Shown here in pieces: positions 1,737 through 41,553 of a DNA stretch of 64,000 nt; within the stretch, counting starts at the first letter, position 1, and every line of letters begins with the position of its first letter. The notes below the pieces were generated by a model. That model saw only the letters and a list, made by a program, of their open reading frames with translations, ran no database searches and was not told the origin of the DNA. The DNA is from a bacterium. GTDB taxonomy: Bacteria; Patescibacteriota; Minisyncoccia; Phycocordibacterales; JAGLPS01. The DNA lies in assembly GCA_030690305.1 (NCBI GenBank), contig JAUYHB010000027.1:15670-79669 (forward strand). Reading direction: 5' to 3'. The translations under genes and the position numbers were made by a program.

Positions 1737-1780
1737 TAGTTGAGAGCGTTGTTTTTATTTGTTTAAATGAAACTTGTTAC

Positions 1781-1851: not shown

Positions 1852-2061
1852 CAAAAACTAGACACCGGCTTTATGTCGGTTGTTTTGTTTCTGTCGCGAA
1901 GCGTTGGGGAATCACAAGATGAAGCAAGCGCAAGCGTGCGAGCTGAGGTCGCGGAAATTGCTAGTAAATAAATATCTGTAACCGATTTCCTACGGATCTA
2001 CATCGACCGGAAAACTTGTGTTTTTGGACAAGAACGTTACTGTTCAATAATCTTTTTTGCA

Positions 2062-2110
2062 CCGCCCCGTGAGACAGGCACAGCCGCCATCTCACGGGGC
2101 TTTTTCTTTT
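2062..2110 (+). terminator. rho-independent terminator
   Basis: GCCCCGTGAGA...TCTCACGGGGC hairpin followed by TTTTTCTTTT; ends an about 200-nt non-coding stretch downstream of the tRNA cluster. Confidence 0.65.
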
Positions 2111-2145
2111 CAAAAAATATTAAGTGCTGTGTTACAATAGGGGGA

Positions 2146-3111
2146 ATGGAAGAATCTATAATCGGTTTTCCGGAACAATTTTCTTTTCACCCAGTCATTG
2201 AAAATGCAGACGCGCTCCGTCCGGCGGAACATTTTATTTTATGCGGCATGGGCGGTTCCCATCTTGCCGCGGGGCTCATAAAACTGTACGACCCGACGCT
2301 CAATCTTTCGGTTCACTATGACTATGCATTGCCTCAATACCCGCACGCGAAATTGAAAGAAGGCCTTCTTATCGCCAGTTCGTTTTCCGGAAATACCGTT
2401 GAAACGATTGATTTTGCACAAAAAGCCTTTGACCAGAAACTCAATCTGATAATTATCGCGTCCGGAGGAAAACTTCTCGAATTTGCGAAAATAAACAATA
2501 TACCGTATATCGCTCTTCCGGCCGTGCGTATTCAGCCGAGAAACGCCGTCGGGTATTCGTTGCTTGCCCTTGCCGAAGCGACATCGAATAAAATGCTTCT
2601 TAATACGTTATGGGGCATGCGGGGGAACTTGGATGCCATGCGGTTTAAGCAGGACGGAGAAATGCTTGCCGAAAAGTTGCAGGGAAAGGTTCCGGTGATT
2701 TATTCCTCAAATAACAACCACTCACTTGCATACAATTGGAAAATAAAATTTAACGAAACCGCGAAAATCCCCGCCTTTTTCAATATGTTTCCGGAACTCA
2801 ATCACAATGAGCTCGCGGGTTTTGACACGACCGAAGAAAAAAAAGCACTCATGCGTCCGTTTCATTTTATTTTTCTTCGGGATTCCAACGACCATCCTGC
2901 AATCATAAAAAGAATGGACATCGCGAAAGACTTGTATCTTACGCGGGGTTTCGATGTGGAGGAGGTGATGCTTACGGGCTCGCATGTCCTTGAAAAAGCA
3001 TTCAACTCGATTTTTCTTGCGGACTGGACGGCATTTTCCCTTGCTTCTTTTTACGGCGTTGACCCGGAACAAGTGCCTCTCATTGAGGAATTCAAAAGTC
3101 TTATCGCATAA
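2146..3111 (+). CDS. pgi: SIS-domain bifunctional phosphoglucose/phosphomannose isomerase (archaeal-type PGI/PMI)
   Basis: SIS motif ...ILCGMGGSHLAAG...; about 320-aa two-SIS architecture typical of PGI/PMI; sits next to a glucokinase-like gene. Confidence 0.75.
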   Translation: MEESIIGFPEQFSFHPVIENADALRPAEHFILCGMGGSHLAAGLIKLYDPTLNLSVHYDYALPQYPHAKLKEGLLIASSFSGNTVETIDFAQKAFDQKLNLIIIASGGKLLEFAKINNIPYIALPAVRIQPRNAVGYSLLALAEATSNKMLLNTLWGMRGNLDAMRFKQDGEMLAEKLQGKVPVIYSSNNNHSLAYNWKIKFNETAKIPAFFNMFPELNHNELAGFDTTEEKKALMRPFHFIFLRDSNDHPAIIKRMDIAKDLYLTRGFDVEEVMLTGSHVLEKAFNSIFLADWTAFSLASFYGVDPEQVPLIEEFKSLIA

Positions 3112-3114
3112 AAC

Positions 3115-3957
3115 ATGTACATGCTTTTCGACATTGGCGGAACAAAGATGCGTATCGCCGTCTCCGACGGGGGCCGTCAACTTGGAGAATATAAAATCGT
3201 TGAAACCCCGAAAGACTTTAACGAAGGAATGTCGCGGTTTGCATCCGTCGTCGCGGAATTAACTCACGGAAAAAAAGCCCAGGGCGCCGCGGGAGGTATC
3301 GCGGGCACTTTCTTGAAAGAAAAAAAAGAACTTGTCCGTTCTCCCCATTTGCGCGCATGGGTGGGAAAGCCCATTCAGGAAGAGTTGGAGAAAATTATCG
3401 GAGGAAAAGTGTTTATTGAAAACGATGCGGCTATTGTGGGGTTGGGAGAAGCGTTATACGGGGCGGGCAAAGGACACAATATTGTCGTATATGTCACTGT
3501 AAGCACCGGTGTCGGCGGAGCGCGCATTGTCAAAGGAATTATCGACCCTTCAACTGCCGGTTTTGAACCCGGACATCAGGTCATAGATATCGCTTCGGCC
3601 ATTGACCCAGTTGATAATCCTAACGGTACGCTTGAGAATTTCATATCTGGTTCGGCTATGGAAAAACGGTTCGGTGTTCCTCCGTGGGAAGTTACCGACA
3701 AGCATGCGTGGGAAGAAATGGCGGAGTGGCTGGCCTACGGTCTTTTCAACACCACATTATATTGGTCCCCTGAGGTCATCGTTTTGGGCGGCCCCATGAT
3801 AGTCGGGCGTCCGGGCATCGATGTTCATCTGACGACGCTGTATCTAAAGAAACTTCTTGAAGAGTTTTCATATATGCCCCTTATCAAAAAGGCACAGCTT
3901 GAATCTATCGGAGGCCTCTACGGGGCGCTTGCCCATTTGAACAGAGTAATAAGATAG
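3115..3957 (+). CDS. ROK-family sugar kinase (glucokinase-like)
   Basis: N-terminal DIGGTKMRIAV actin-fold phosphate-1 motif and ENDAAIVGLGEALYGAGKG ROK signature. Confidence 0.8.
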   Translation: MYMLFDIGGTKMRIAVSDGGRQLGEYKIVETPKDFNEGMSRFASVVAELTHGKKAQGAAGGIAGTFLKEKKELVRSPHLRAWVGKPIQEELEKIIGGKVFIENDAAIVGLGEALYGAGKGHNIVVYVTVSTGVGGARIVKGIIDPSTAGFEPGHQVIDIASAIDPVDNPNGTLENFISGSAMEKRFGVPPWEVTDKHAWEEMAEWLAYGLFNTTLYWSPEVIVLGGPMIVGRPGIDVHLTTLYLKKLLEEFSYMPLIKKAQLESIGGLYGALAHLNRVIR

Positions 3958-4233: not shown

Positions 4234-5334
4234 ATGCTTTCAATCGGAATTGTCGGGCTTCCAAATGTCGGAAAATCAACGTTGTTTAACGCGCTGACCC
4301 TCAAGTCTGTTCCCGCGGAAAACTTTCCTTTTTGCACCATTGACCCATCGGTAGGCATTGTTGCCGTGCCGGACGAACGGTTGTGGAAACTTACAACATT
4401 CAGCACATCGGCAAAAACCATTCCTGCCGCCATTGAATTTGTCGATATTGCCGGGCTTGTCAAAGGAGCCTCGGAAGGCGAAGGCCTTGGCAACCAATTC
4501 TTAAGTCACATCAGGGAGGTTGATGCCATTGCGGAAGTGGTGCGTATTTTTGAAGACCAAAACATCATTCACGTTGACGGGAAAATCCAGCCGCTGTCCG
4601 ACATTGAAACAATCAATCTCGAGCTTGTTTTGGCAGATTTGCAGACGGTTACGAAACGTAAGGGAAGTATTGAAAAAGACGCACGGCGAGGAGACAAAGT
4701 CGCGCTCATCGAATCGGGGGTATTGAATAAAATCGAGCCGGTTCTTAAAGAGGGGAAACCCGTTTCCACGCTCCAGTTTACGGAAGAAGAAAAACCCGTG
4801 CTTAGAAATCTTCACCTTCTGACCTCAAAACCGATTATGTATGTTCTCAACAAAAAAGGCGGGGGAACGAACCTTGATGAACTGAAAGACGAGCGCTGGA
4901 CGGCACTTTTAAAGTTTTTTGAAGACACTAACGCCAAGTGGACGATTGCCGACGCAAAAATCGAGGACGAACTCAAAGAACTTGTTGGAGAAGAAAAAGA
5001 AACGTTCCGCAAGGAACTTGGGGGAAAAGATGACGGTATCGACACGCTCATCAAAAAGGGATACGAATTGCTGAATCTCATTACGTTTTTTACCACGGGA
5101 GAAGACGAAAGCCGCGCATGGACGATACGCCGCGATTCAAAAGCGCCCGTTGCGGGCGCCGCAATCCATACCGACTTTCAGCACAGATTCATTTGTGCCG
5201 AAGTCATTCCGTGGAACACGCTTCTCGAAGCCGGCTCATACGGCACCGCCCGGGAAAAAGGCCTTCTGCGCACCGAAGGGAAGGAATATGTCGTTAAAGA
5301 TGGTGATGTGATTGAGTTCAAAATTGGTGCGTAG
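4234..5334 (+). CDS. ychF: ribosome-binding ATPase YchF (Obg-like ATPase)
   Basis: G1 motif [18 protein letters not shown]; C-terminal TGS-like end ...[14 protein letters not shown]; about 365 aa. Confidence 0.9.
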
Positions 5335-5404: not shown

Positions 5405-6349
5405 ATGGATACAACGCAGCCAACACAAAAACCCCGTACAACAGCCGCCGACTTCTTTCTCCATCTCGGAGTTATTGTCGCCTTGTACGTAACGGTAATC
5501 AGTTTTCTCAATCTCGTTTTCAGCCTTATTAACTATGTATATCCGAACTTGCCGCTTGAACAGGGGGTTCCGACAAGCGACCTGAGTATCCCCGTGTCTG
5601 CGCTTGTTATTTTTGCCCCGTTGTACATTTTTCTTTCATGGCTTCTCAATAAGCAATATGGCACCAACCCTTACAAGCGTGAGTTGGGAGTGCGAAAATG
5701 GCTGGTGTATCTTACGCTTTTTATCTCCGGTCTGGCGATTGCTATCGACCTTGTTGTTCTGGTGTACAGTTTCGTGAGCGGAGAATTAATCACTCTCGGT
5801 TTCCTCCTTAAGGTCTTGTCGGTCTTTACTGTTTTAGTCGCCGTTTTTTGGTATCATATTGCCGATTTGAAGGACAAAATAAACGCATCACAAAACAAAA
5901 AACTCGCAATTGCTCTTTCCGTTGTCATTATCGGCTTCATTTGTTTGAGTTTTGCCATTATGGGCTCGCCGTTTAAGCAAAGACTTCTGAAAATCGACGG
6001 TCGTCGAGTTTCCGACTTGCAAAACATTCAATATCAAGTGCTTAACTACTGGCAGTCAAAAGAGAAATTACCGACAACACTTGATGACCTTGTCGATTCT
6101 CTTTCGTACAACAAGGTTCCTGTCGACCCTGCTACCCAGTCCCAATATGAATATCGTGCAATTCCGCCCTTTTCCTTCGAATTGTGTGCTACCTTTGATC
6201 TTCCAAGTGAGGAAAGTGTAAAAAGTATTGCACAGCCCGAGTTTGTCAGCGACTATGAATTTGAAAACTGGAAGCATGAAAAGGGAAGAACCTGCTTTGA
6301 ACGCACTATTGACCCGGACAGGTATCCTCCGTATACCAAAGTAAGATAG
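5405..6349 (+). CDS. polytopic membrane protein, function unknown
   Basis: Several hydrophobic helices in the N-terminal 200 aa and a soluble C-terminal domain; no catalytic motif recognised. Confidence 0.6.
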   Translation: MDTTQPTQKPRTTAADFFLHLGVIVALYVTVISFLNLVFSLINYVYPNLPLEQGVPTSDLSIPVSALVIFAPLYIFLSWLLNKQYGTNPYKRELGVRKWLVYLTLFISGLAIAIDLVVLVYSFVSGELITLGFLLKVLSVFTVLVAVFWYHIADLKDKINASQNKKLAIALSVVIIGFICLSFAIMGSPFKQRLLKIDGRRVSDLQNIQYQVLNYWQSKEKLPTTLDDLVDSLSYNKVPVDPATQSQYEYRAIPPFSFELCATFDLPSEESVKSIAQPEFVSDYEFENWKHEKGRTCFERTIDPDRYPPYTKVR

Positions 6350-6361
6350 CTAAAAGAAGAG

Positions 6362-6392
6362 AAAGCGGCGGGAAAATCGCCGCTTTTTTCTG
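6362..6392 (+). terminator. rho-independent terminator
   Basis: AAGCGGCG-ggaaaat-CGCCGCTT hairpin followed by TTTTTTCT. Confidence 0.65.
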
Positions 6393-6406
6393 TATACTAG
6401 AGCAAT

Positions 6407-8845
6407 ATGGCGCAGGAATATAACCATTTGTCCATAGAAAAAAAATGGCGGGAGAAATGGGCAAAAGAAAAAATCTATAAAACAACGGAATTAGGTGACA
6501 AGCCAAAAGCCTATATTTTGGACATGTTCCCATACCCTTCAGGTGTGGGACTTCATGTCGGGCACCCAAAGGGCTACATTGCAACCGATATCTACTCACG
6601 TTTCAAGCATATGAACGGCTTCAATGTCCTGCATCCAATGGGGTGGGACGCATTCGGTTTGCCCGCGGAAGAATATGCCATTAAAAACAAAATTCATCCG
6701 CGCGTTGCCGTAGAGCAAAATATCAAACGCTACAAAGAACAGCTGGAAATTCTCGGATTCAATTATGACTGGGAGCGGGAAATCGATACTACCGACCCGA
6801 AATACTATAAATGGACGCAATGGATTTTTCTGCAGATGTTTAAAGACGGTCTTGCTTTCGAGTCGCACGAGCCGATTAACTGGTGTCCGTCATGTAAAAC
6901 AGGTCTTGCTAACGAAGACCTGGAAGGAGGAAAGTGCGAACGCTGCGGTTCGATTGTCGAAAAACGTCCGATTCGCCAGTGGGTCTTGAAAATCACCGAT
7001 TATGCGGAAGATTTGCTTGCCGACCTGAAAGATTTGGCATGGCCCGAATCCATAAAAGAATCCCAGCGAAACTGGATAGGGAAAAGTGAGGGAGCGGAAT
7101 TTGACTTCGAACTTGTGGATATTCCCGGCCAGCCCGATGGCAAACATAAGGTAAAAGTATTCACTACACGCCCCGACACGCTGTTCGGTGCGACCTTTGT
7201 AGCGATTTCCGCAGCGCGAGCGAAACTCTGGCTTGATATCGGCTGGAAAGCGAGCGAAGAAATAAAAAAATTCATCGAAAAAACTCTTGCCAAGGAAGCG
7301 GTTCGCGCGCTTAATGAAGTTCCGGAGAAGGAGGGAATGTTTACGGGCATATACGCAAAAAATCCCGCGAACAGAGAAAAAATTCCCGTATGGATTGCGA
7401 ATTACGTTCTCTCGGATTATGGAAGCGGGGTAATTATGGCAGTACCCGCCCACGATGAGCGTGATTTTGAGTTCGCCAAGAAATTCTCTATAGAAATTCG
7501 TCCTGTTGTTCTTTCAGGGGGTAGCGTCCAAATAGGTTGGACCATGGAAAAATATGCTGAAGAATGGAATGACCACTACGCTAAAAATGGCAAACTTTGG
7601 AATTCAGGTGAGTTTACTGGCATGGAAAGTGAGGAAGCGAAAAAGGAAATTATAAAGTTTGCAAAAGGAAAAGAAAAAATTCAGTACAAACTCAAAGATT
7701 GGGTATTCTCCCGTCAGCGATATTGGGGTGAACCTATTCCTCTCATCCATTGCAAAAAATGTGGTGTAGTTCCCGTGCCTGAAAAAGATTTGCCGGTGGA
7801 ATTGCCTGATGTGAAGTACTACGAACCGACCGGAACGGGGGAATCACCTCTCGCAAACATTTCAGAGTGGGTGAATGTGAAATGTCCGAAATGCGGCGGG
7901 GAAGCCAAGCGCGAAACAAATACAATGCCGCAGTGGGCCGGCTCGTGCTGGTACTACCTGCGCTACATGGACCCGAAAAATGACAAGGCGCTCGTTGACC
8001 CCAAAAAGGAAAAACACTGGGCTCCTGTGGACATGTATGTGGGAGGTACAGAACATGCCACGCGTCACCTTATCTATGCCCGTTTTTGGCATAAGTTTCT
8101 CTATAAAATAGGCGCAGTAAGCACCAAAGAGCCCTTCATAGCCCTTCGCAACCAAGGCCTTATCATGGGTACGGACGGACGAAAAATGAGTAAGCGGTTC
8201 GGAAATGTCGTTAATCCCGACGATATAGTTGCGCAATTCGGCGCGGACACCATGCGTGTATATGAAATGTTTATGGGTCCGTTTGAAGCGTCAATCTCAT
8301 GGAGTACGGACAATCTCGTGGGCTCACGGCGTTTCGTTGAGCGTGTCTGGAATCTCGCGCAAAAAGTTTCAAAAGAAGGAACCGTTTCGGACGAAACTCT
8401 TTTCAACCGTACCGTAAAGCAGGTGACCGAGGATATAGAAAATTTTCGTTTTAATACCGTCATATCGGACATGATGATATTGTTGAATTCTCTTGAAAAA
8501 GAAGAAAAAATTCCGCAAGCGATTTTTGAAACATTTATTACCCTTCTGTCTCCGGTTGCTCCACATATCACCGAGGAATTATGGCAGGCCTTGGGCTACC
8601 AAACCTCAATCCATCTTCAGCCGTGGCCGACATTTGACGTTGCAAAACTCGTATCCGAAACGGCCACAATTGCCGTGCAGGTAAACGGAAAAATCAGGGG
8701 GGAATGCACTGTCTCAAACACCGCAACAGAAGATGAAATTAAAACACAGGCACTTTCTTTAGAGTCCGTAAAAAAATGGACGGAAGGCAAGGAGATTAAA
8801 AAGACCATTTTCATAAAAGGAAAACTCATCAGTTTTGTTGTTTGA
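6407..8845 (+). CDS. leuS: leucyl-tRNA synthetase
   Basis: MFPYPSG...HVGHPKGY (HIGH region), editing/CP1 region, KMSKR (RKMSKRFGNVVNPDD); 812 aa. Confidence 0.95.
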   Translation: MAQEYNHLSIEKKWREKWAKEKIYKTTELGDKPKAYILDMFPYPSGVGLHVGHPKGYIATDIYSRFKHMNGFNVLHPMGWDAFGLPAEEYAIKNKIHPRVAVEQNIKRYKEQLEILGFNYDWEREIDTTDPKYYKWTQWIFLQMFKDGLAFESHEPINWCPSCKTGLANEDLEGGKCERCGSIVEKRPIRQWVLKITDYAEDLLADLKDLAWPESIKESQRNWIGKSEGAEFDFELVDIPGQPDGKHKVKVFTTRPDTLFGATFVAISAARAKLWLDIGWKASEEIKKFIEKTLAKEAVRALNEVPEKEGMFTGIYAKNPANREKIPVWIANYVLSDYGSGVIMAVPAHDERDFEFAKKFSIEIRPVVLSGGSVQIGWTMEKYAEEWNDHYAKNGKLWNSGEFTGMESEEAKKEIIKFAKGKEKIQYKLKDWVFSRQRYWGEPIPLIHCKKCGVVPVPEKDLPVELPDVKYYEPTGTGESPLANISEWVNVKCPKCGGEAKRETNTMPQWAGSCWYYLRYMDPKNDKALVDPKKEKHWAPVDMYVGGTEHATRHLIYARFWHKFLYKIGAVSTKEPFIALRNQGLIMGTDGRKMSKRFGNVVNPDDIVAQFGADTMRVYEMFMGPFEASISWSTDNLVGSRRFVERVWNLAQKVSKEGTVSDETLFNRTVKQVTEDIENFRFNTVISDMMILLNSLEKEEKIPQAIFETFITLLSPVAPHITEELWQALGYQTSIHLQPWPTFDVAKLVSETATIAVQVNGKIRGECTVSNTATEDEIKTQALSLESVKKWTEGKEIKKTIFIKGKLISFVV

Positions 8846-32077: not shown

Positions 32078-33160
32078 ATGGCCAAAAATTACTACGAAAT
32101 TCTTGGTATTGAAAAAAGCGCAAGCAAAGACGATATAAAAAAAGCGTTCCGCAAGCTTGCCCACAAATATCACCCCGACAAAAAGGGCGGTGATGAAGCA
32201 AAATTCAAAGAAGCGAGCGAAGCGTACGGCGTTCTTTCCGACGATAAAAAGCGTGCCCAATATGACTCATATGGGAGGGTATTTAACGATGCGGGAGGAT
32301 TCAGCCAAGGCCAAGGACAGGGTTTTGAAGGCTTTGATTTCTCCGGTTTCGGTAACGCCGGTTTCAATTTTGAAGATGTAGACCTCGGGGACATTTTCGG
32401 AGACTTTTTTGGTGGTACCCGTGGCGGGCGCCCCAAACGCGGCCGCGATATTTCCATCGATCTCGAACTTTCCTTTGAGGAAAGTATTTTCGGCGTTGAG
32501 CGAAAAGTGCTTGTAAATAAAATTTCTTTCTGCGAAACGTGCAAAGGAAGCGGGGCCGAAGAGGGTTCCGAGTTGGTAACCTGCGCTCAATGTGGCGGCA
32601 AAGGAAAAGTAAAGAACGTTCGGCACTCGATTTTAGGTTCGTTTGCTACAGTCCAGGAATGTACCGACTGTCATGGCAAAGGAAAAACTCCGAAGAAAAA
32701 ATGCAATGTCTGCAAAGGCATGGGTATTTTGGACAGACGCGAAGAAATCCGCATCAAAATTCCGGCGGGAATTGAAGATGGTGAAGCAATCCGACTTTCC
32801 CAAAAAGGGGAAGCTGTTGCAGGTGGTATAGCCGGCGACTTGTATGTCCGTATCCGTACCAAAAAGCACCCGATTTTCAGGAAAGAGGGTCACAACCTCT
32901 CAATGACCCTCAATGTCCGCCTTACAGACGCCCTCTTGGGCGGTAAATACACCGTACGGACGCTTGATGGGGATATTATCGTCAAAATCCCCGAGGGGGT
33001 GGCATTTGGCGAGATTTTGCGCATCAAGGGCAAGGGAGTGCCTTACGAGGACGGTAAAACGCGCGGCGACATTCTCATAAAGATTGCCGTGGAACTTCCA
33101 AGAAAACTCTCCAAAAAATCAAAAGAAAACATCGAAAAACTCCGAGAAGAGGGGATTTAG
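32078..33160 (+). CDS. dnaJ: molecular chaperone DnaJ
   Basis: J-domain with HPD (AHKYHPDK), Gly/Phe-rich linker, four CxxCxGxG zinc-finger repeats. Confidence 0.95.
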
Positions 33161-33277
33161 CCTCTATACAATTTGGCAAAAATCTGCTATAATTGTGGGT
33201 ATAGTGAAGTATAGGGAAATACAGAGTATTCAGAGTGGATTATTGATGATTCTTTCATTTATATTTTAAGTATTGTC

Positions 33278-33305
33278 TAAAACGCCTTTATGGGCGTTTT
33301 TTGTT
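33278..33305 (+). terminator. rho-independent terminator after dnaJ
   Basis: AAAACGCC-tttat-GGGCGTTTT hairpin followed by TTGTTT. Confidence 0.65.
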
Positions 33306-33311
33306 TAATAC

Positions 33312-34082
33312 ATGGCAACAAGTTTAGCTACAAAACCAAAATTAAGGGCGGTACCGGAGATATTTGCCGTGGCTGATTTTCAGGAAGAACAGAAATTTCT
33401 TCCGGCGTACCGTTTATTCCCGACAATTTTTCAGGCGTTTCTCACTCCCGTTATGCGCCTGTTTTTTTACATATTCGGAAGAATTGAAATAAAAGGTCTT
33501 GAAAATCTTAAACATATTCCTCACGGTGTGATTCTCGCCTCAAACCACATTAGCGAACTCGACCCTATTATTATTCCGGCTGTGCTACCGCTGTCTTCCC
33601 GTTTACGGCCTCTTTTCTTCACCTCCAGGCAACGAAAAACATACGTCCATAATCCTCGTTTTAGCTGGCGTGGTTATTTTTACGGAGGCTTATTGTTTAA
33701 ACTTCTTGGTGGGTATCCGGTTATAATCGGTATTCACAATTATGAGCAATCTCTTGCCGCGCATATCAAACTTGTTGACGAGGGCCGCACTGTTGTTATT
33801 TTCCCTGAAGGAACACGAACGCGCGACGGTAATTTGCGGGAAGCCAAAGGGGGAGTGGCGTATCTTGCGTACAGAACCAATGCTCCAATCGTCCCGATTT
33901 CAATTGACGGGTTATATAACATAAACCTTTTTGAGCTTCTTACGTTCAAAAGAAAAATAAAAATTTCTTTCGGAAAACCTTTTTTTGTCATGGATATTTT
34001 ACCTTCGCGAGAAGTTGAAATTCACGACTTCCATATTGCCGCCCAGGAAGTGATGAAGAAGATTAAAGAATTAAAGGGCTAA
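33312..34082 (+). CDS. plsC: lysophospholipid (1-acyl-sn-glycerol-3-phosphate) acyltransferase family protein
   Basis: NHISELD (HX4D) and FPEGTRTRDG acyltransferase motifs. Confidence 0.8.
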   Translation: MATSLATKPKLRAVPEIFAVADFQEEQKFLPAYRLFPTIFQAFLTPVMRLFFYIFGRIEIKGLENLKHIPHGVILASNHISELDPIIIPAVLPLSSRLRPLFFTSRQRKTYVHNPRFSWRGYFYGGLLFKLLGGYPVIIGIHNYEQSLAAHIKLVDEGRTVVIFPEGTRTRDGNLREAKGGVAYLAYRTNAPIVPISIDGLYNINLFELLTFKRKIKISFGKPFFVMDILPSREVEIHDFHIAAQEVMKKIKELKG

Positions 34083-34084
34083 AT

Positions 34085-34789
34085 ATGTTGGACACAAGAT
34101 TCTGGAAAAAATATTTCGAAGTATACGACCTACTCAATATCCTCGAGCCGTATCAGACACTGCTTCAAGATATCCGTGAACCCCTTGGCGAGATAGAAGG
34201 AATGAAAATTCTTGATGCGGGAGCTGGAACTGGTAACTTGGCGATTTTGCTTTCCCGAGAGGGTGCCGACGTTGTCGCTCTTGATTTTTCACAGGAAGGA
34301 CTTGGAAAATATCTTGAGAAATTTCCCTCGGGAAAAACTGTGCTTCATGACCTCACAGAACCGCTTCCGTTCGATTCCGAAACCTTTGACACTATTGTCT
34401 CGAATAATACGATTTACACTTTACCTAAAGAAACTCGTCCGTATGCATTTAAAGAGTTTTACCGAATTTTGAAACGAGGTGGAAAAATTGTCGTTTCAAA
34501 CGTGCATACTGGCTTTAAACCGATAAAAATTTATTTTGCCCACATTGGATGGAGTTTAAAAAACAAAGGTTTGGGGAAAACCATGGGGGAAGTGCTAAGT
34601 CTCTTAGTGCCGACAATGAAGATTTTTTACTATAATTCTCTTATCATAAAAGAGCATAAAGGTAATAATTTTGCTTTTATAGGCGAAAATGAGCAGAAAG
34701 AACTCCTCGAAAGCACGTTTTTCAAAGAAATTTCTCAAAACAAGTCCACGTATGCCAATCAGGCAATCCTTAATCACGCGATAAAATAA
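34085..34789 (+). CDS. class I SAM-dependent methyltransferase
   Basis: ILDAGAGTGNLAILL motif I and downstream motif II/III spacing. Confidence 0.75.
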   Translation: MLDTRFWKKYFEVYDLLNILEPYQTLLQDIREPLGEIEGMKILDAGAGTGNLAILLSREGADVVALDFSQEGLGKYLEKFPSGKTVLHDLTEPLPFDSETFDTIVSNNTIYTLPKETRPYAFKEFYRILKRGGKIVVSNVHTGFKPIKIYFAHIGWSLKNKGLGKTMGEVLSLLVPTMKIFYYNSLIIKEHKGNNFAFIGENEQKELLESTFFKEISQNKSTYANQAILNHAIK

Positions 34790-34843
34790 GCCATTCTAAA
34801 ATGGCTTGTTTTCTAATACAATTTACCTAATTCTCCAAGAGCT

Positions 34844-35596
34844 ATGAAGATTTACAAAAAACTTAAATTAGCAATAAAAGAAGGAGAAAAAGAAGTTATC
34901 TTTGGTGAAACTGAAACTGTAGATGAACTAAAACAAGTTTATGAATTCCGTTTTAAAGAATATTCGAGAAAAGGGTATATCATTCCCTCCCAGTTTCCCG
35001 ACAATCAAGAAAGTGACGAGTATGATAAATCTAGAAAATGTAAGTATTTTGTAGCAATTGTAGATAATAAAATTATTGGAACAGTTCGTCTTATCATTAC
35101 TGACCCTCTTCCTACGGAGAGTGTTTATCATTTTATCGAACCCGTTGAAATGCTAAAAATTCCTCGTGACAGAAGAGGGGAGCTGGGACGTCTGATTATT
35201 GTTCCCTTAGACCGTGAGAAGAAAATCTATCTTCCAAGAGGTCTCGTTCTACTTATGATGTTGGATATGTTGGCTGATTATGGTACACGAAATAATATTC
35301 AGGGAGGGTATGCATTTATTAAAAAAAGTCTTGAGCAAAAAATGAAATTACTCCGTTTTCCTTTTAATCCTATTAAAAAATTTGAATATATTGATTTAGC
35401 GACCAACACTATTCGTAATTATTTTCATCAACCTAATGACCCTGCCTTACCAATTTTTTATTTGACTGTGGATTTTAAAAAATATATTTCAAAAATTATT
35501 TATAATCCGTGGTTGTTCAAAAAAGAAAAAGATAACACCCTAATTCTTAGAAAAAACCTATATTCTTTTTTCCTCAAGGTTCTAGGGATAATTTAA
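34844..35596 (+). CDS. GNAT-fold N-acyltransferase of the autoinducer-synthase-like (LuxI/FeeM N-acyl amino acid synthase) type
   Basis: ...VYEFRFKEYSRKGYIIPSQFPDNQESDEYDKSRKCKYFVAIVDNKIIGTVRLII... and ...ELGRLIIVP... resemble the R-x-x-VF/E-x-D-x-D and GxxRL/ExSRL blocks of LuxI/FeeM-type acyl synthases. AT-rich gene. Confidence 0.55.
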   Translation: MKIYKKLKLAIKEGEKEVIFGETETVDELKQVYEFRFKEYSRKGYIIPSQFPDNQESDEYDKSRKCKYFVAIVDNKIIGTVRLIITDPLPTESVYHFIEPVEMLKIPRDRRGELGRLIIVPLDREKKIYLPRGLVLLMMLDMLADYGTRNNIQGGYAFIKKSLEQKMKLLRFPFNPIKKFEYIDLATNTIRNYFHQPNDPALPIFYLTVDFKKYISKIIYNPWLFKKEKDNTLILRKNLYSFFLKVLGII

Positions 35597-35623
35597 GTTA
35601 TAATGAAAGGAATAATAATTTAA

Positions 35624-37186
35624 ATGGAAAATTTGATTGTACCAATTTTATATATCGTGGTGGCAGTTAATGTTATTCTCGCTTTTGTTATTTTCTCTCG
35701 AGGTCTTAAGAATTTAAAAAATCTTCTTTTTGCACTGATTGCTCTTACGACAGCAATATGGAGCGTTGCTATTATAGGTTTTTTTTCACCAGAATATCGA
35801 AGTTTTTTTGAGTGGATACGTCTAACCCACATCTCCGCTCTTTTAATTGCATTTGTGTTTTTTCATTTTTCGTTAGTTTTTCCTCAAAAAGTCTACAGAA
35901 GTTCATTGATAGCTTATTTATTCAGCATACCCTGCTTGGTTGCTTTATACTTTTTGTTTTTTACAAATCTGATAGTGAGTAACAGTGGTACAGGTGTCGC
36001 ATACGGCATTGAGGGTGGTTATATATTTTATGGCTTACTTTTGACATTCTACTTTTTCTCTGGTTATTTTTTCTTAGACGTCCAGTATAAACGCGCAAAA
36101 ACCGAAGAACAAAAAGGTCAAGTGAAGTATGTTTTTATTGGTTCCTTACTTACTTCTGCACTAGCCATAGTACCTGATTTAATTTTCCCTTTTTTTAAAA
36201 TTTTTGATTATACATGGTTAGGCCCGATATTCACCTTATTTTTAGTCGTGTCAATCTTTATTGCCATGGTTAGATTCCAGCTTTTCAATATTAGAATCAT
36301 TTTAACTGAGCTTTTTACAGGAGTAATTATCATTGTAATGATGATAGATTTATTCCTTTCAAGCTCTACCTTCGACCTATTAGTAAAATCAGGGATATTG
36401 GTATTAATTACATTTTTTGGTTTCTTATTAATAAAAAGTGTTTATAGGGAGGTTGAACAGAGAGAACATATTGAAAAACTGGCGGGGGAGCTTGAGGAGG
36501 CCAACAGACGCCAGGAGAGCCTTCTGCACTTCATAGGGCATGAAATCAAGGGATACTTCACCAAGAGCCACTGGGCGCTTTCCTCAATGATTGACGGAGA
36601 CTACGGAGAAATTGCTCCTGATTTAAAGATGCTTACCACCCAGGCCCTAGACGACACCAGGCAGGGCATTGATATGGTTGATGGTATTTTAAAGGCTGGT
36701 AATTTTAAAAAAGGGACAGTGAGTTTCAACATGAAGCCTTTCGATTTCAAGGGCGAGCTTAACAATGTTATTGGGATGCTTAAGCCTAATATTGAGACGA
36801 AAAAACTGGCCCTCCAACTTAATATTGACGAAAACCAGGATTATACGCTAAATGGCGACGGAGAGCAGATAAGCAAGCACGTCCTAAGAAATCTTATTGA
36901 TAACGCGATTAAATACACGCCTTCCGGAACCATTACAATCAGCCTTTCAAAGAAAGACAGCAAAATTCTTTTCTCTGTTAAAGATTCTGGGGTAGGAATT
37001 AAAGAAGAAGATAGAAAATTGCTGTTTACCGAAGGTGGACGAGGCAAGGATTCGGTAAAAATAAACGTCCACAGCACCGGCTACGGCCTCTTTATCGCAA
37101 AACAAATTGTAGACGCCCACAAAGGGCGCATTTGGGCTGATTCTACCGGCCCCAATCAGGGCTCCACTTTCTCTATAGAGATTTAA
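35624..37186 (+). CDS. sensor histidine kinase with an N-terminal 7-TM-like membrane domain; no adjacent response regulator
   Basis: About 7 hydrophobic helices (aa 1-280), HisKA H-box LHFIGHEIKGY, HATPase_c N/G boxes (LIDNAIKYT, VKDSGVGI, GTGYGLFIAKQIV...GSTFSIEI). Confidence 0.85.
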   Translation: MENLIVPILYIVVAVNVILAFVIFSRGLKNLKNLLFALIALTTAIWSVAIIGFFSPEYRSFFEWIRLTHISALLIAFVFFHFSLVFPQKVYRSSLIAYLFSIPCLVALYFLFFTNLIVSNSGTGVAYGIEGGYIFYGLLLTFYFFSGYFFLDVQYKRAKTEEQKGQVKYVFIGSLLTSALAIVPDLIFPFFKIFDYTWLGPIFTLFLVVSIFIAMVRFQLFNIRIILTELFTGVIIIVMMIDLFLSSSTFDLLVKSGILVLITFFGFLLIKSVYREVEQREHIEKLAGELEEANRRQESLLHFIGHEIKGYFTKSHWALSSMIDGDYGEIAPDLKMLTTQALDDTRQGIDMVDGILKAGNFKKGTVSFNMKPFDFKGELNNVIGMLKPNIETKKLALQLNIDENQDYTLNGDGEQISKHVLRNLIDNAIKYTPSGTITISLSKKDSKILFSVKDSGVGIKEEDRKLLFTEGGRGKDSVKINVHSTGYGLFIAKQIVDAHKGRIWADSTGPNQGSTFSIEI

Positions 37187-37202
37187 CCTGAAGTGGTTTT
37201 TC

Positions 37203-37231
37203 TTGACAAAGCAAGAAAAAGATTATATTAT
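37203..37231 (+). promoter_or_regulatory. near-consensus sigma-70 promoter for the rSAM-peptide operon, followed by a palindrome
   Basis: TTGACA - 17 nt - TATTAT; downstream GTCTTTG-ACA-AAAGAC inverted repeat (37245-37260) and AAAGGAGG RBS before ATG 37295. Confidence 0.6.
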
Positions 37232-37294
37232 ATGAGGAAGTTGGTCTTTGACAAAAGACTTTTGAATCTCTAGACAGAAAGGAGGATAGATGAC

Positions 37295-38350
37295 ATGAGT
37301 TCATTCCAAGTGAAAATTGTTGGTGATTTCTGTAACATCCGTTGTACATATTGCAGAAACCGTGACTTTGATCAAGATACGAATGTTTTGATGTCTGTGG
37401 CCAATCTAGAAAAACTTTTTGTTTTTCTAGATTCGTTACCACAAGCACGAATTCGTGTGAATTGGCACGGGGGCGAGCCATTGCTGGCAGGAAAAAAGTT
37501 TTTCCATCATATCTTGAGACTGGAAAACCAATATAAGCAAAAAATATGGATGAATGCTGTTCAGACAAATGCCATGTTGATTGATGATGATTGGGCTAAA
37601 CTTTTCCATGATAACCACTTTGATATCGGAGTAAGTATTGATGGAAGTGAACAAACGCATAACAGTGACAGAATAAATGTTGCTGGACGTGGAACATATA
37701 AGGAAGCGATGCGTGGTGTGGAAGCTCTTCGTCATAATAGCATTCATCCCGGCGTTATCTGTACTGTTACTAAAAAGACTGTCAGATACGCAAAAGAGAT
37801 GCTTCTTGATCTAGTGGATGCTGGGTTTAAAAGCATTGCTTTCAATGCTTTCTATAACACAGCGTCAGATTGTGATGGTGATACGTACGGACTAACAGAC
37901 ACAGAATGGCTGGCGTTTCTCATAGAAATATTTGAAACGTGGCTCGTACTTAATGATCCCACAATTCGTGTTCGCGAGTTGGATAGCATGCTTGCATGGA
38001 CCAAATCAAAAAGTGCTAATTCTTGCGTGTATAAAGGTACCTGTTATCAGTGGTTCGCTATCCATTACACTGGCGACATTTATCCTTGTGAAAGGCTGGG
38101 TAAATCTACCCATTTTGGAAGTATTGACTCCCTGAGAACTTTTCAGGACTTAGTGAATACTCCTGTTTTCCTTAATTGGAAAGAGTCAATTGGCCAACTT
38201 CCTCAAAGGTGTCGCACTTGCAGTTTGCAGTCATTGTGTCATAATGGTTGCGTTAGCCATCGGAAAGCAGATGAAGAGGGGGTGCCTCTTTACAGGTATT
38301 GTGAAAGTAGGCTCGGTTTCTATGATTACATCAAGGAAAGACTTAAATGA
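37295..38350 (+). CDS. radical SAM enzyme with a C-terminal SPASM domain (peptide-maturase type)
   Basis: CNIRCTYC (CX3CX2C) radical-SAM cluster motif. C-terminal auxiliary-cluster cysteines CVYKGTC...YPCE...CRTCSLQSLCHNGC are typical of SPASM (anSME/PqqE/MftC/AlbA-like) enzymes. Confidence 0.85.
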   Translation: MSSFQVKIVGDFCNIRCTYCRNRDFDQDTNVLMSVANLEKLFVFLDSLPQARIRVNWHGGEPLLAGKKFFHHILRLENQYKQKIWMNAVQTNAMLIDDDWAKLFHDNHFDIGVSIDGSEQTHNSDRINVAGRGTYKEAMRGVEALRHNSIHPGVICTVTKKTVRYAKEMLLDLVDAGFKSIAFNAFYNTASDCDGDTYGLTDTEWLAFLIEIFETWLVLNDPTIRVRELDSMLAWTKSKSANSCVYKGTCYQWFAIHYTGDIYPCERLGKSTHFGSIDSLRTFQDLVNTPVFLNWKESIGQLPQRCRTCSLQSLCHNGCVSHRKADEEGVPLYRYCESRLGFYDYIKERLK

Positions 38351-38365
38351 AAGGGGGTAAGGACC

Positions 38366-38551
38366 ATGTCACGTAAGAGTAGTTCTTTAGTTAATGAACG
38401 GCAGTCATCGCTATCTGGAAATCTCGCGCTTCAAGGTTCATTTAGCCGGATTGAGGATGGTAGTCGTTTTTCATCAAAAATACCGGAAGTCACGAATTAC
38501 GATGACTATCAGTATTCCGATTGCGACTACGATGACAGTGGAAAAAACTGA
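38366..38551 (+). CDS. putative RiPP precursor peptide (61 aa) with a Tyr/Asp-rich C-terminal core
   Basis: ATG 15 nt after the rSAM stop with AAAGGGGGT RBS. Sequence MSRKSSSLVNERQSSLSGNLALQGSFSRIEDGSRFSSKIPEVTNYDDYQYSDCDYDDSGKN. A strong terminator follows. Confidence 0.55.
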   Translation: MSRKSSSLVNERQSSLSGNLALQGSFSRIEDGSRFSSKIPEVTNYDDYQYSDCDYDDSGKN

Positions 38552-38574
38552 CACGAAGTAAGTTTTTAGTTAGC

Positions 38575-38610
38575 CAAGAGCGGGTTTGCAAAAACCCGCT
38601 CTTTTTTTTA
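38575..38610 (+). terminator. strong rho-independent terminator ending the rSAM-peptide operon
   Basis: GAGCGGGTTT-gca-AAACCCGCTC hairpin followed by TTTTTTTT. Confidence 0.75.
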
Positions 38611-38623
38611 ATATGAATACATT

Positions 38624-39409
38624 GTGAATAAAGATTTGTTAATGTCTTATGATCAGTACTCGAAAATTAAGCATGAAACTCCATATTTTTACATTGCCAA
38701 ATCAACAAAACAATCAATCTACTATTTTGGTTCCAGTCATTCCCATGATCCCAATCATCCGCAATTTGAATTATTAAAAGCGAAATGGAACGAATTTCTT
38801 GATGAAACTAAGGGACTGAAAACAGTAGTTCTTGTAGAAGCACATGAAATGCCAGAGCCAGAAGCTACACTGGAAAAAGAAATTATTAAACATGGTGAGT
38901 CAGGTGCGGGAGCCTATCTAGCGTATAAAAATAAGGCGCTGCTTATCTTTGGAGAACCTCAAAACGATAAAATAATTGTCCATCTGCTTCAATATTTTTC
39001 TAAAGAAGAGATTCTTTTTTGGTATGAATGCCAAGCTATAAAATTTTGGCAGCAACACAAAAAGGGAAGAAGCATACATGAATTTCTTTCAAATCATACT
39101 GAGAAATATCGTAAATTATTTAAATGGCCGGATTTGGTTATATCTTTAGAACTTGTTAATTCGATATATAAAAAATTATTTAATCAAGAGTTGAATATTG
39201 ATGACGAAGAATTATTCTCTCAAATTACCACTCCAATAACTGTTTTATCAAGAATTAATGAATTGTCCAGAAGCCAATCTATCTACAGAAATGAGCAGAT
39301 ATTGGTGCAAATAGAAAAATATTGGAAAGAGGGAAGTAATATTTTTGTTATCTATGGTGCTGGTCATGCGGTTATGCAGGAATCCGCCATCCGTAGTTTA
39401 GTTGGCTAG
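38624..39409 (+). CDS. TraB/GumN (Tiki-like) family protein, putative metalloprotease
   Basis: N-terminal ...IYYFGSSHSHDPNHP... and C-terminal ...FVIYGAGHAVMQESAIRSLVG match the two conserved GxxH blocks of TraB/GumN/Tiki proteins. GTG start; very AT-rich. Confidence 0.55.
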   Translation: MNKDLLMSYDQYSKIKHETPYFYIAKSTKQSIYYFGSSHSHDPNHPQFELLKAKWNEFLDETKGLKTVVLVEAHEMPEPEATLEKEIIKHGESGAGAYLAYKNKALLIFGEPQNDKIIVHLLQYFSKEEILFWYECQAIKFWQQHKKGRSIHEFLSNHTEKYRKLFKWPDLVISLELVNSIYKKLFNQELNIDDEELFSQITTPITVLSRINELSRSQSIYRNEQILVQIEKYWKEGSNIFVIYGAGHAVMQESAIRSLVG

Positions 39410-39432
39410 ACAATTCTTAAGGAATATATTTA

Positions 39433-39903
39433 ATGATACTACGACAAAGAGTAGCTGCGATTGTGGTTAAAGAAGATACGGTGCTTCTAATGCATCGTAT
39501 TAATGATGGAAAGGAATATTATTCTTTTCCTGGTGGTGGCAAGGAAGAAAATGAAAGTCTAGAAACAGGAGCGCTTCGAGAACTTTCTGAAGAAACGACA
39601 GTTGATGCAATAATTGACCGTTTGGTGTATAAGGTTATATGGGATAGCGGTGATGAGAACTACTTCTATCTTTGTAATTACATTTCAGGAGAACCAAAAC
39701 TAAGAGAGGATGCCGAAGAGCTAAAAGAGATGGCTGACGGAAAACAGGCGTATAAGCCGGAATGGGTTTATATTTCCGATTTACCCAACACCCTTTTATA
39801 TCAGTTAGAAATCAGAGATTTACTTATAAAAGACTTAAAAAATGGCTTTCTCGAACATCCTCAAGAACTCTTTATAAAAGTTGAAGAAAGACGTCGGATA
39901 TAA
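39433..39903 (+). CDS. Nudix hydrolase
   Basis: Nudix box GGGKEENESLETGALRELSEETTV. Confidence 0.8.
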   Translation: MILRQRVAAIVVKEDTVLLMHRINDGKEYYSFPGGGKEENESLETGALRELSEETTVDAIIDRLVYKVIWDSGDENYFYLCNYISGEPKLREDAEELKEMADGKQAYKPEWVYISDLPNTLLYQLEIRDLLIKDLKNGFLEHPQELFIKVEERRRI

Positions 39904-39908
39904 ATTAA

Positions 39909-40664
39909 ATGAAAGAAAATACTTCATGGGGAAATGTTGCGGATTGGTATGATACGCACCTTGAACAGGGCGGGGATACGTATCAGCGCAAAGTAATATT
40001 GCCGAATTTGCTTCGGGTGCTTGATTTGAAAGCGGGGGAAAGCGTGCTTGATTTAGCCTGCGGGCAGGGATTTTTCTCCCGTGAATTCGCAAATGCCGGT
40101 GCCAAGGTCATTGGGACCGACATTTCAAAGGAACTTATTGGGTACGCACAAGAACATTCTCCCAAAGAAATTACTTTTCATGTTTCTCCCGCCGACAATC
40201 TTTCTTTCGCTAAAGATGCTGAATTTGATGTGGTTACGATTATTCTTGCAATTCAAAATATTGAAAATATTTCGGGAGTTTTTTCTGAAGTAAAACGTGT
40301 TCTTTCTCCGCAAGGCGGGCTAATCATGGTGCTCAACCACCCGGCATTTAGAATCCCGAAGCAATCGGAATGGGGATGGGACGAGGAAAAGCAAATTCAG
40401 TACCGCAGAATCGACCGCTATCTTTCTCCTCAAAAAATTTCCATTGAAATGCATCCGGGGGAAGAAAAAGGGGAGCAAACGATTTCTTACCACCGTTCCT
40501 TACAGGACTTTTTCAAAGCATTGTCCAAAAACGGTTTTGCAATATCCAAACTTGAAGAATGGATTTCCCACAGAGAAAGCCAGGAAGGCCCGCGTCAGAA
40601 AGCGGAAGACACCGCCCGCAAAGAAATCCCGCTATTTCTGATGCTTGAGGCTAAAAAGATGTAG
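39909..40664 (+). CDS. class I SAM-dependent methyltransferase
   Basis: VLDLACGQGFFSREFA motif I, acidic motif II (GTDIS), IMVLNHPAF. Confidence 0.75.
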   Translation: MKENTSWGNVADWYDTHLEQGGDTYQRKVILPNLLRVLDLKAGESVLDLACGQGFFSREFANAGAKVIGTDISKELIGYAQEHSPKEITFHVSPADNLSFAKDAEFDVVTIILAIQNIENISGVFSEVKRVLSPQGGLIMVLNHPAFRIPKQSEWGWDEEKQIQYRRIDRYLSPQKISIEMHPGEEKGEQTISYHRSLQDFFKALSKNGFAISKLEEWISHRESQEGPRQKAEDTARKEIPLFLMLEAKKM

Positions 40665-41285
40665 TTGGTATTCTCAAACAAAAAATCTTGTATGTCACAC
40701 AATGTATCGTGGGAAAAATATATTAAGAAAACCGAGTCAAACCCACCCCGAGTTTTACTTACTGAAGCAGTAGAACATGTGCGGAATAAAGATGAGGCTC
40801 TTGATTTGGGAGCTGGAGCAATGAACGATTCAAAATACCTTTTATCAGTTGGTTTTAAACATGTAACGGCAATTGACAGTGATATCGCTGCCCAAGAAAA
40901 GGCAAAAGACATCTTAGGAGATAAGTTTTCTTTTTTCTTAAGTAGCTTTGAAAATTTTTCTTTTCCTCATGAGACGTATGACTTGATAAATGCTCAGTAC
41001 GCTTTACCGTATAATTCTCCAAAAACATTTAACAGTTTAATAAAGAACATTACTCTCTCACTTAAACCTAAAGGTGTGTTTGCAGGTCAACTATTTGGTA
41101 ATAAAGATTCTTGGAATACTGAAAACAGTGGTAAAACCTTTCATACAAAAGAAGAGGCTGAAAAGTTATTTTTAGATTTTAAGATAATCAAATTTATAGA
41201 GGAAGAAAATGATAAACCGAGTGTTCTTGGAAAACCAAAACATCAACACCTGTTTAATTTTATAGTTTCAAAACCAGAAAAATAA
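40665..41285 (+). CDS. class I SAM-dependent methyltransferase (small, TehB/TPMT-like size)
   Basis: ALDLGAGAMNDSKYL motif I and AIDSD motif II. Begins immediately after the previous stop (TTG at 40665 or ATG at 40692); AT-rich. Confidence 0.65.
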   Translation: MVFSNKKSCMSHNVSWEKYIKKTESNPPRVLLTEAVEHVRNKDEALDLGAGAMNDSKYLLSVGFKHVTAIDSDIAAQEKAKDILGDKFSFFLSSFENFSFPHETYDLINAQYALPYNSPKTFNSLIKNITLSLKPKGVFAGQLFGNKDSWNTENSGKTFHTKEEAEKLFLDFKIIKFIEEENDKPSVLGKPKHQHLFNFIVSKPEK

Positions 41286-41316
41286 AAAGAGCAGAGAAAA
41301 AATCTCTGCTCTTTAG
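41286..41316. terminator. bidirectional terminator between convergent genes
   Basis: AAAGAGCAGAG-aaaaaat-CTCTGCTCTTT hairpin. Confidence 0.6.
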
Positions 41317-41331
41317 TAAATGGGAGGGGGA

Positions 41332-41553
41332 TTAATTTAACCAGGAAAGCCATAACGGAGATGTTGACGCTTTCAATTTCTTTTCATTCCAGCGGGGAAT
41401 GTGTCTTTGCCCGACCCACGACATATCGTGGAAAAACTGGGCACGGGCTCTTTCTGTTGTGGCCACTTCTTTGGGAGAAGCGACCTTGGTGCAGGCCCTG
41501 TGTGGCCTTTCAGCCTGGGCAATGTCTTCCATAATTCTGGTCCTTAAACTCAT
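41332..41553 (-). CDS. small Trp-rich hypothetical protein (73 aa)
   Basis: Start chosen at the ATG preceded by AAAAAGGAGGATATATG (minus strand), not the longer 41628 ORF; consensus promoter upstream. Confidence 0.5.
   Translation of the reverse strand: MSLRTRIMEDIAQAERPHRACTKVASPKEVATTERARAQFFHDMSWVGQRHIPRWNEKKLKASTSPLWLSWLN

Follow-up and report, generated by a model that had tools for sequence, protein, structure and literature searches.

A conserved cassette of a radical SAM enzyme, an aromatic-x-Asp peptide and a TraB/TIKI-fold protein in Patescibacteria: candidate precursors of triceptide-like peptides

This work concerns a small gene at positions 38366-38551 (+ strand) of a stretch of 64,000 nucleotides from contig JAUYHB010000027.1 of a patescibacterium, a member of the Candidate Phyla Radiation (CPR); the whole stretch is referred to as the window. 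The gene encodes a peptide of 61 amino acids and resides between the genes for a radical S-adenosylmethionine (rSAM) enzyme with a SPASM domain and for a protein with a TraB/TIKI-type fold. The three genes form a conserved cassette, the C-terminal part of the peptide family is marked by a register of aromatic-x-Asp triplets, and the enzyme belongs to the rSAM/SPASM class with its cluster-binding residues intact. With slightly better than even confidence, we interpret the peptide as a triceptide-like precursor that would acquire three cyclophanes between Tyr and Asp, and perhaps a fourth link on Y48-x-Y50, and would be released by the TraB-like hydrolase. The elements of the cassette are the following:

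37203..37231 (+): sigma-70-like promoter candidate, TTGACA-17-TATTAT, 11 of 12 consensus positions, 5' of the rSAM gene
37295..38350 (+): gene for a radical SAM/SPASM maturase of 351 amino acids, similar to anaerobic sulfatase-maturating enzymes (anSMEs); Pfam Radical_SAM, Fer4_12 and SPASM above cut-offs
38351..38362 (+): Shine-Dalgarno region of the peptide gene (AAGGGGGTAAGG), with AAGGGGG 8 nt ahead of the ATG
38366..38455 (+): leader, residues 1-30, with the conserved motif N19-L-A-L-Q-G-S-F-S-R-I-E30
38456..38494 (+): variable linker, residues 31-43, DGSRFSSKIPEVT, presumed to contain the cleavage site
38495..38548 (+): core, residues N44-N61, with Y45-D-D47, Y48-Q-Y50, Y50-S-D52, C53 and Y55-D-D57
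38576..38613 (+): intrinsic-terminator-like hairpin (12-bp stem, 6 GC pairs) and T-run (TTTTTTTT), directly 3' of the peptide gene
38624..39409 (+): gene for a predicted TraB/TIKI/ChaN-fold hydrolase of 261 amino acids, putative leader peptidase; the start may be M7 at 38642

The peptide gene and its occurrence behind radical SAM genes

The open reading frame (ORF) at 38366-38551 is a real gene and its translation reads MSRKSSSLVNERQSSLSGNLALQGSFSRIEDGSRFSSKIPEVTNYDDYQYSDCDYDDSGKN. A preliminary description, made from the letters of the window, had listed the triplets Y45-D-D, Y48-Q-Y, Y50-S-D and Y55-D-D together with a lone C53, and this numbering proved exact on the translation, in which the core starts at N44. 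Within the core DNA, the 9-nt sequence TACGATGAC is present twice, at 38498 and 38528. The peptide ATG follows the rSAM stop codon at a distance of 15 nt. Signals for expression are shared by the relatives of the gene: in nearly all homologous loci a Shine-Dalgarno sequence, AAGGAGG, is located 6-10 nt ahead of the peptide ATG, and the stop codon is followed by a hairpin (-15 to -29 kcal/mol) and a T-run, which in the window are located at 38576-38603.

Protein searches with the peptide itself remained nearly empty. The sole match in a word-index search was the peptide, phmmer against 1.84 billion representative sequences yielded four true small homologues, and neither Pfam nor NCBIfam holds a model for it. 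Several long repeat proteins that also came up in the phmmer search were rejected as chance or low-complexity matches. The family was therefore recovered from the DNA downstream of genes for homologues of the rSAM protein, by which 15 genome and 43 metagenome loci had been retrieved. In essentially all loci that extend far enough, a small ORF begins at a short distance behind the rSAM gene. Among the 50 loci that have at least 330 nt downstream of the rSAM gene, a profile built from 33 aligned peptides matches exactly one small ORF, directly after the rSAM gene, in 46; peptides in three further loci were recognised by eye, and the remaining locus, L058, contains a degenerate remnant. The preliminary description had made its proposal depend on the presence of the peptide and of its Tyr/Asp pattern in homologous loci, and it holds up on both points. 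In L058, an ORF of 33 residues (545-646) fuses the C-terminal motif of the rSAM protein (FCHNGCVAHR) to a peptide core (VDCPYDDYQDYNDSRTEDD), as if by deletion, and a TraB-like gene still follows.

Across the loci, the partner peptides comprise 51-72 amino acids. Alignment of the 33 peptides gives a leader consensus N-x-A-L-x-G-A-F-x-R-I/V-E/D, which is followed by a linker that differs in length and sequence from clade to clade (RFSSxIPxxT in the window clade, [LF]PxP in others) and by acidic tails with a net charge of -4 to -14. The adjacency of rSAM and peptide genes is strict, from rSAM identities of 85% down to 38%.

In the window, the rSAM and peptide genes (37295-38551) share one reading frame, with only a TGA stop and then five codons (KGVRT) between them. 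Spacing and frame vary among the other loci, where some rSAM genes overlap the start of the peptide gene, and the common frame therefore looks incidental rather than indicative of a read-through fusion. A 55-residue ORF in another frame (38394-38561, + strand), which overlaps the peptide gene, was rejected as a by-product of stop-free Asp and Tyr codons. Comparable overlapping ORFs in a shifted frame are found in many homologous loci, most likely because Asp and Tyr codons produce no stops when read out of frame. Scanning 36800-39600 with Rfam yielded sub-threshold matches only, all on the terminator hairpin, and a known RNA element was therefore rejected. The promoter candidate at 37203-37231 is the top-scoring site in 33000-41500, which is a consensus match only; the total count of promoter-like sites across the region is not above that in shuffled DNA.

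The aromatic-x-Asp register and the chemistry it suggests

Motifs were counted in 37 distinct peptides, over the last 25 residues of each, and set against expectations from composition-preserving shuffles. Aromatic-x-Asp was observed 127 times where 39.8 occurrences are expected, in counts that are not independent because the 37 peptides are related. Other spacings are not enriched, with 36 cases of aromatic-Asp and nine of aromatic-x-x-Asp (the shuffle expectation was computed for aromatic-x-Asp only). The window peptide taken alone is weakly non-random: it has three aromatic-x-Asp motifs, 0.94 are expected, and three are reached in 3% of shuffles. The register is held between clades whose rSAM proteins are only 44-50% identical. 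In the window clade (seven aligned peptides and P0151), the core reads Y-D-D-[YFW]-x-Y-x-D-C-[GD]-[YH]-x-D. Aromatic positions accept Y, F, W or H only, the second position of the triplet (X2) is free (Q/H/V/K, S/D/P/N, D/S/T/P) and the third (X3) is fixed as D. This substitution pattern matches that of a ring-forming aromatic-X2-X3 motif. The [YFW]-x-Y element is kept throughout the window clade and in several other clades.

Triceptides carry a bond between an aromatic carbon and the Cβ at i+2 on aromatic-X2-X3 motifs (PMC11499958). The characterised motifs include HTK, HAA, HNR, YDR, YSK, HAS and FTK, and motifs of this kind in the precursor core, the mark of the class, are present in the window peptide and its family. 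The predicted bond is already documented chemistry: YxdB joins Tyr-C3 to Asp-Cβ and thereby closes a three-residue cyclophane (PMC11002830, citing Sugiyama et al. 2022), and OscB links Trp-C7 to the Cβ of Asn or Asp (PMC11002830). A triceptide-like, multi-ring product is therefore the best reading. The multi-cyclophane product put forward in the preliminary description gains support from the alignments, in which aromatic and Asp residues are conserved at i and i+2 around a variable X2, and from the YxdB precedent.

We infer the following course of events, from the site of hydrogen abstraction to the type of bond and the number of rings. The peptide would be the precursor of a ribosomally made, post-translationally modified peptide (RiPP), and the adjacent rSAM/SPASM enzyme would bind its conserved leader (N-x-A-L-x-G-A-F-x-R-I-E). 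The 5'-deoxyadenosyl radical would take the Cβ hydrogen of the Asp at position 3 in each aromatic-x-Asp triplet, and the Asp carbon radical would attack the aromatic ring two residues upstream, that of Tyr (or of F/W/H). Deprotonation and oxidation via an auxiliary Fe-S cluster would then make the ring aromatic again. Each motif would thus give one three-residue cyclophane (-2 Da), which in the window peptide would amount to three rings, Y45-D47, Y50-D52 and Y55-D57. A fourth link may form at Y48-x-Y50, either as a C-C bond or as an ether as in darobactin-type aromatic-x-aromatic motifs. The downstream TraB/TIKI-fold hydrolase would then probably remove the leader.

Among known systems, that of YxdA and YxdB (WP_226048651.1 for YxdB) was set beside the window system by its published description. 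It too pairs an rSAM/SPASM maturase with a precursor core containing Tyr-x-Asp, and its product is the link proposed here. The window system differs in that the named homologues of its enzyme all stem from CPR metagenome-assembled genomes (MAGs), in having a TraB/TIKI-fold hydrolase as partner and in having a precursor that no Pfam or NCBIfam model covers. A wider group of three-residue cyclophane synthases, i.e., XncB/XyeB, OscB/GrrM, MscB/FxsB, YhhB, HaaB, HtkB, ChlB, MicB and AmcB, acts on aromatic-X2-X3 substrates with often several motifs per peptide. These enzymes accept all aromatics, and most of them lack a RiPP recognition element (RRE) and are anSME-related, like the window enzyme. 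The latter, however, reaches 91-138 bits against cut-offs of 310-450 on their models, and the cores of the window family are polyanionic (-4 to -14) with almost exclusively Asp at X3.

A parallel case is found in locus L050, where a second RiPP-like cassette (115-3735) resides 5' of the main match. It consists of an AmcB-type rSAM gene, a peptide gene (1270-1461) and a TraB-like gene (1540-2370) and thus has the layout of the window cassette, TraB-like gene included. The enzyme scores 424.9 bits on the NCBIfam AmcB cyclophane-synthase model (cut-off 425), and the aromatic-x-D peptide of 63 amino acids ends in KFDDTPWNGEWKNYTDR. After the TraB-like gene come a fragment (2505-2828) with a weak match to RimK ATP-grasp (E 0.003) and a 247-residue ORF with GEIHG and GHLH motifs and no family match, which is possibly ChaN/TraB-like.

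Judging by their peptides, more distant rSAM clades keep aromatic-x-x triplets with other aromatics. In the L059 clade (rSAM 38% identical), a peptide with the same leader has the core NYDDFVDFPD, and the peptide profile detects it from outside its training set (E 3.8e-5); in the L061 clade (rSAM 33% identical) the core is SSWGQGWYDGWHQGR. Neighbourhood features of these distant clades lie at 4328-5236 (-) and 5748-7001 (+) in L059 and at 4396-5295 (+) in L061. Both loci have as a neighbour a protein of about 300 amino acids with an HExxH motif (WHETIH, HELIH) and no Pfam or NCBIfam family; L059 carries a second, PapB-like rSAM (136 bits), and L061 has a methyltransferase-like gene downstream. 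The HExxH proteins were considered as displaced peptidases and rejected, since the α-ketoglutarate (αKG)-HExxH enzymes of triceptide clusters act as hydroxylases or in oxidative cleavage and neither protein matches a family.

The maturase, the TraB/TIKI-fold protein and their surroundings

The rSAM protein scores 60.2 on Pfam Radical_SAM and 27.0 on SPASM, both over the cut-off, and Pfam and NCBIfam scans reveal no N-terminal RRE domain. Its CX3CX2C motif (C13/C17/C20) is conserved, and so are C244, C250, C265, C306, C309, C315, C319 and C336, which align with the auxiliary-cluster ligands of anSME. The protein therefore shows both marks of a SPASM enzyme, the CX3CX2C motif and a Cys-rich C-terminal domain for two auxiliary [4Fe-4S] clusters. 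An invariant Glu266, with an invariant Arg267 next to it, aligns with anSME Asp277, the proposed catalytic (general) base. Beside the cluster motif, Arg21 and Arg23 replace F23 and H25 of anSME and flank the position of its Tyr24. The basic residues Arg21, Arg23 and Arg267 would suit a target that bears a carboxylate.

On NCBIfam models, the enzyme obtains the following bit scores, each given with the curated cut-off in brackets: anSME TIGR03942, the best match, 230.5 (349.45); DynA, the second best, 183 (450); PapB 147 (340); AmcB 138 (425); DarW 133 (650); GrrM/OscB 130 (310); DarE 122 (650); YhhB 107 (445); FxsB 95 (370); XyeB 91 (450); and SCIFF 66 (425). The best match in the PDB is anSME 4k37, with 146 bits by single sequence and 229 by family profile; the corresponding values are 59 and 99 for CteB and 49 and 89 for the triceptide synthase ChlB (9gm3). 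By these comparisons, the relationship to recognised three-residue cyclophane-forming enzyme (3-CyFE) families is at the superfamily level only. Among the 272 homologues of the rSAM protein, all named ones originate from Parcubacteria-type CPR MAGs, with labels such as Zambryski-, Yonath-, Yanofsky- and Pacebacteria. The labels of L005/L026 (a contig labelled Candidatus Scalindua sp.) and of several 'Saccharibacteria' third-party annotation (TPA) assemblies look at odds with this distribution, which may be due to mis-binning or coarse labelling.

Of the 37 loci with 1300 nt or more downstream, 34 have a TraB-like gene after the peptide gene; it is missing in L005/L026, L013 and L033. The encoded protein has 25 word-index homologues, all unannotated. 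On Pfam PF01963 (TraB_PrgY_gumN) it reaches 16.8 bits, with a gathering score of 26.8, and only its C-terminal 38 residues match; 14 of 16 members of the hydrolase family match this model at E values up to 1, the best being 0.0017. A PDB sequence search with the protein gave nothing meaningful. Invariant in the family are YYFGxxH39, YGAGH248, three Glu and two Arg. The protein has the fold that characterises TIKI/TraB/PrgY/GumN proteins, together with their pair of G-x-x-H motifs and the conserved Glu and Arg residues. It is soluble, and the model contains no membrane segment. Going by fold and motifs, it is a hydrolase. TraB and PrgY handle peptide pheromones in enterococci, and a TIKI/TraB-type leader peptidase would echo that function; we know of no member of the TIKI/TraB superfamily that has been shown to act as a RiPP leader peptidase. 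Tiki/TraB and SPASM genes have been reported together in ATP-grasp loci of CPR bacteria, where precursors were not found (Makarova et al. 2022, PMC8939145). In the window, no ATP-grasp gene is found near the cassette, and a graspetide locus was rejected for this reason. Neither an RRE domain nor an RRE gene was detected in the cassette by Pfam and NCBIfam scans. No sulfatase-like large ORF or other evident substrate gene adjoins the cassette in the window neighbourhood, the rest of the genome not having been searched.

Further upstream, the following gene is loosely associated with the cassette, and its membership is uncertain:

35624..37186 (+): gene for a HisKA_7TM histidine kinase (Pfam HisKA_7TM and HATPase_c)

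Directly 5' of the kinase gene, 34844-35596 (+) encodes a GNAT-like protein of 250 amino acids that matches Pfam FeeM (N-acyl amino acid synthase, E 2.8e-10) and also, more weakly, Autoind_synth, as well as a PEP-CTERM-associated acyltransferase model; no homologue of it was found in the other loci. Large ORFs throughout the window (1-64000, GC 44%) are nearly all on the + strand and encode housekeeping functions. Among them are grpE-dnaK-dnaJ, just 5' of the cassette, trpS and aspS, which lie 3' of it, and genes for ribosomal proteins. The cassette is embedded in the core genome, with no obvious island.

Competing readings and the meaning of the cassette

Several observations count against three Tyr-Asp cyclophanes on a peptide released by the TraB-like protein. 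Every NCBIfam match of the enzyme stays under its curated cut-off, including those of all cyclophane synthases, and in the PDB comparison the enzyme is far closer to anSME than to ChlB. The cassette contains no exporter. The TraB-like protein is probably the leader peptidase, a role assigned from fold and motifs only, and the TIKI/TraB/PrgY/ChaN/erythromycin-esterase superfamily to which it belongs also holds esterases and a haem-binding protein. In addition, the Cys is invariant in the clade of the window peptide, which may for this reason carry an extra Cys-based link.

In principle, the same triplets could meet a different fate, i.e., formation of an ether (Tyr-O to Cβ, or aromatic-x-aromatic on Y48-x-Y50), epimerisation, dehydrogenation or a decarboxylative reaction. 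We regard this as unlikely, while noting what favours it. DarE, DarW and DynA belong to the same anSME-like branch as the window enzyme; DarE and DynA make C-O and C-N links besides C-C, only the anSME model outscores that of DynA (183 bits), and rSAM/SPASM epimerases such as EpeE exist. The outcome of the DarE reaction is controlled by the substrate, with an ether formed when the residue that undergoes abstraction is aromatic (PMC10705402). The [YFW]-x-Y-x-D element kept in the window clade has the fused aromatic-x-aromatic-x-X topology of darobactin, W-N-W-S-K (PMC9055067). However, a non-aromatic X3 such as Asp leads to a C-C bond to Cβ in every characterised case consulted, and the Tyr-C3 to Asp-Cβ link is directly documented. 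The DarE, DarW and DynA models are matched far under their cut-offs; although the [YFW]-x-Y motif of daropeptides is present, the enzyme reaches only 122 of 650 bits for DarE and 133 of 650 for DarW. It also lacks the N-terminal extension of DarE, such that matches start at position 83 of the DarE profile, and the window locus has neither the BamA-targeting context nor the DarBCD transporter of darobactin systems.

Rather improbable is a scenario in which the product would be a polyanionic peptide with several Tyr-Asp staples, specific to CPR bacteria, which would serve in signalling or host interaction, be freed from its leader by a cytoplasmic TIKI/TraB protein, the first in its superfamily with such a role in RiPP maturation, and be sensed by the 7TM kinase, or in which the Y-x-D bond would be of a kind new to rSAM enzymes. 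On one strand or the other, at a distance of no more than a few kb from the cassette, homologues of the HisKA_7TM kinase are encoded in about 12 of the 58 loci, several of them redundant (L001, L002, L003, L004, L005, L015, L021, L025, L027, L031, L032 and L036). No response regulator adjoining the kinase gene was seen in the window.

It is quite doubtful that the chemistry is centred on the Cys, with the sulfur of C53 joined to an Asp Cβ in a ranthipeptide- or QhpD-like manner (e.g. C53-D57, C-x3-D) or with C53 converted to formylglycine, and with Tyr and Asp serving only recognition or function. One of the top matches is to PapB, a ranthipeptide model (147 bits), and enzymes of the PapB type target the Cβ of Asp. 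All sequence measures give anSME as the closest family, and the window enzyme shares with it (TIGR03942; PDB 4k36-4k39) an equal length, the lack of an RRE, the CX3CX2C motif and the eight auxiliary-cluster Cys. Some cyclophane synthases, SjiB and DarE among them, can turn Ser into formylglycine. The Cys is invariant within the window clade and present in 29 of the 37 tails, many of which have at most one. It is, however, lacking in eight of the 37, and the aligned position is occupied by S, A, I or N in other clades (YVDSPYDDYQD, YVDAPYEDYHD, YPDIQYGD, YIDNDPD) that retain the rSAM enzyme, the leader and the Y-x-D motifs; Ala and Ile are incapable of forming a thioether or formylglycine. A thioether or a Cys-to-formylglycine conversion is therefore not the family-defining chemistry, and the family does not share the conserved donor Cys in the core that distinguishes ranthipeptides and sactipeptides. 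This weakens the single Cys thioether that the preliminary description had named as its alternative. Of the two features whose conservation it had proposed to check in an alignment, the Y-x-D spacing is conserved and the Cys is not conserved family-wide; its mention of a single Cys is true of the window peptide but does not describe a conserved feature of the family.

Formylglycine formation meets further difficulties. In place of a sulfatase, the partner of the window enzyme is a 61-residue peptide in which the sulfatase motif C/S-x-P/A-x-R is missing (C53-D-Y-D-D); the Cys, which has the context D-C-D-Y-D in the window and D-C-P-Y-D in other clades, is one that the family can do without. Both the PapB and the anSME models are matched under their cut-offs, and the enzyme thus has neither the TIGR03942 score nor the sulfatase substrate of an anSME. 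TIGR03942, the anSME model, also picks up DarE, which nevertheless makes C-C and C-O links and forms formylglycine only on Ser variants (PMC10705402); closeness to anSME is therefore no argument for formylglycine chemistry, nor does it speak against cyclophanes. Systems of the pyrroloquinoline quinone (PQQ) or mycofactocin type are not indicated either: the cassette has no RRE partner, the C-termini of the aligned peptides are variable and never V-Y, and the PqqE and MftC models are outside the top 25 NCBIfam matches of the rSAM protein.

Finally, it is highly improbable that the peptide is not a substrate but an unmodified small acidic protein (e.g. a metal binder or regulator) that shares the operon of an rSAM enzyme with a target elsewhere: the lack of an RRE domain and of an exporter in the cassette and the anSME-like nature of the enzyme would fit, but the strict rSAM-peptide adjacency at identities from 85% to 38%, the leader/core organisation typical of RiPP precursors, the parallel cassette around an AmcB-type cyclophane synthase and the lack of a sulfatase or other evident substrate gene in the cassette all speak against it.

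CPR bacteria (Patescibacteria) have tiny genomes, and the natural-product pathways recognised in them are few. The cassette of an anSME-like rSAM enzyme, an aromatic-x-Asp precursor and a TraB/TIKI-fold hydrolase recurs in several named Parcubacteria-type groups. As far as we could find, the precursor family, the enzyme clade, the confinement to CPR bacteria among named homologues and the TraB/TIKI partner are undocumented, with the reservation that YxdB was compared by description only. If the triceptide-like reading is true, triceptides would gain a new clade of enzymes and a large family of precursors that lack annotation, the SPASM and Tiki/TraB pairs noted earlier in CPR loci without a substrate would be given a concrete precursor, and the TIKI/TraB superfamily would be tied to RiPP processing. 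The enzyme stands between anSME and the cyclophane synthases and is therefore a useful test case for the switch from formylglycine formation to C-C cross-linking.

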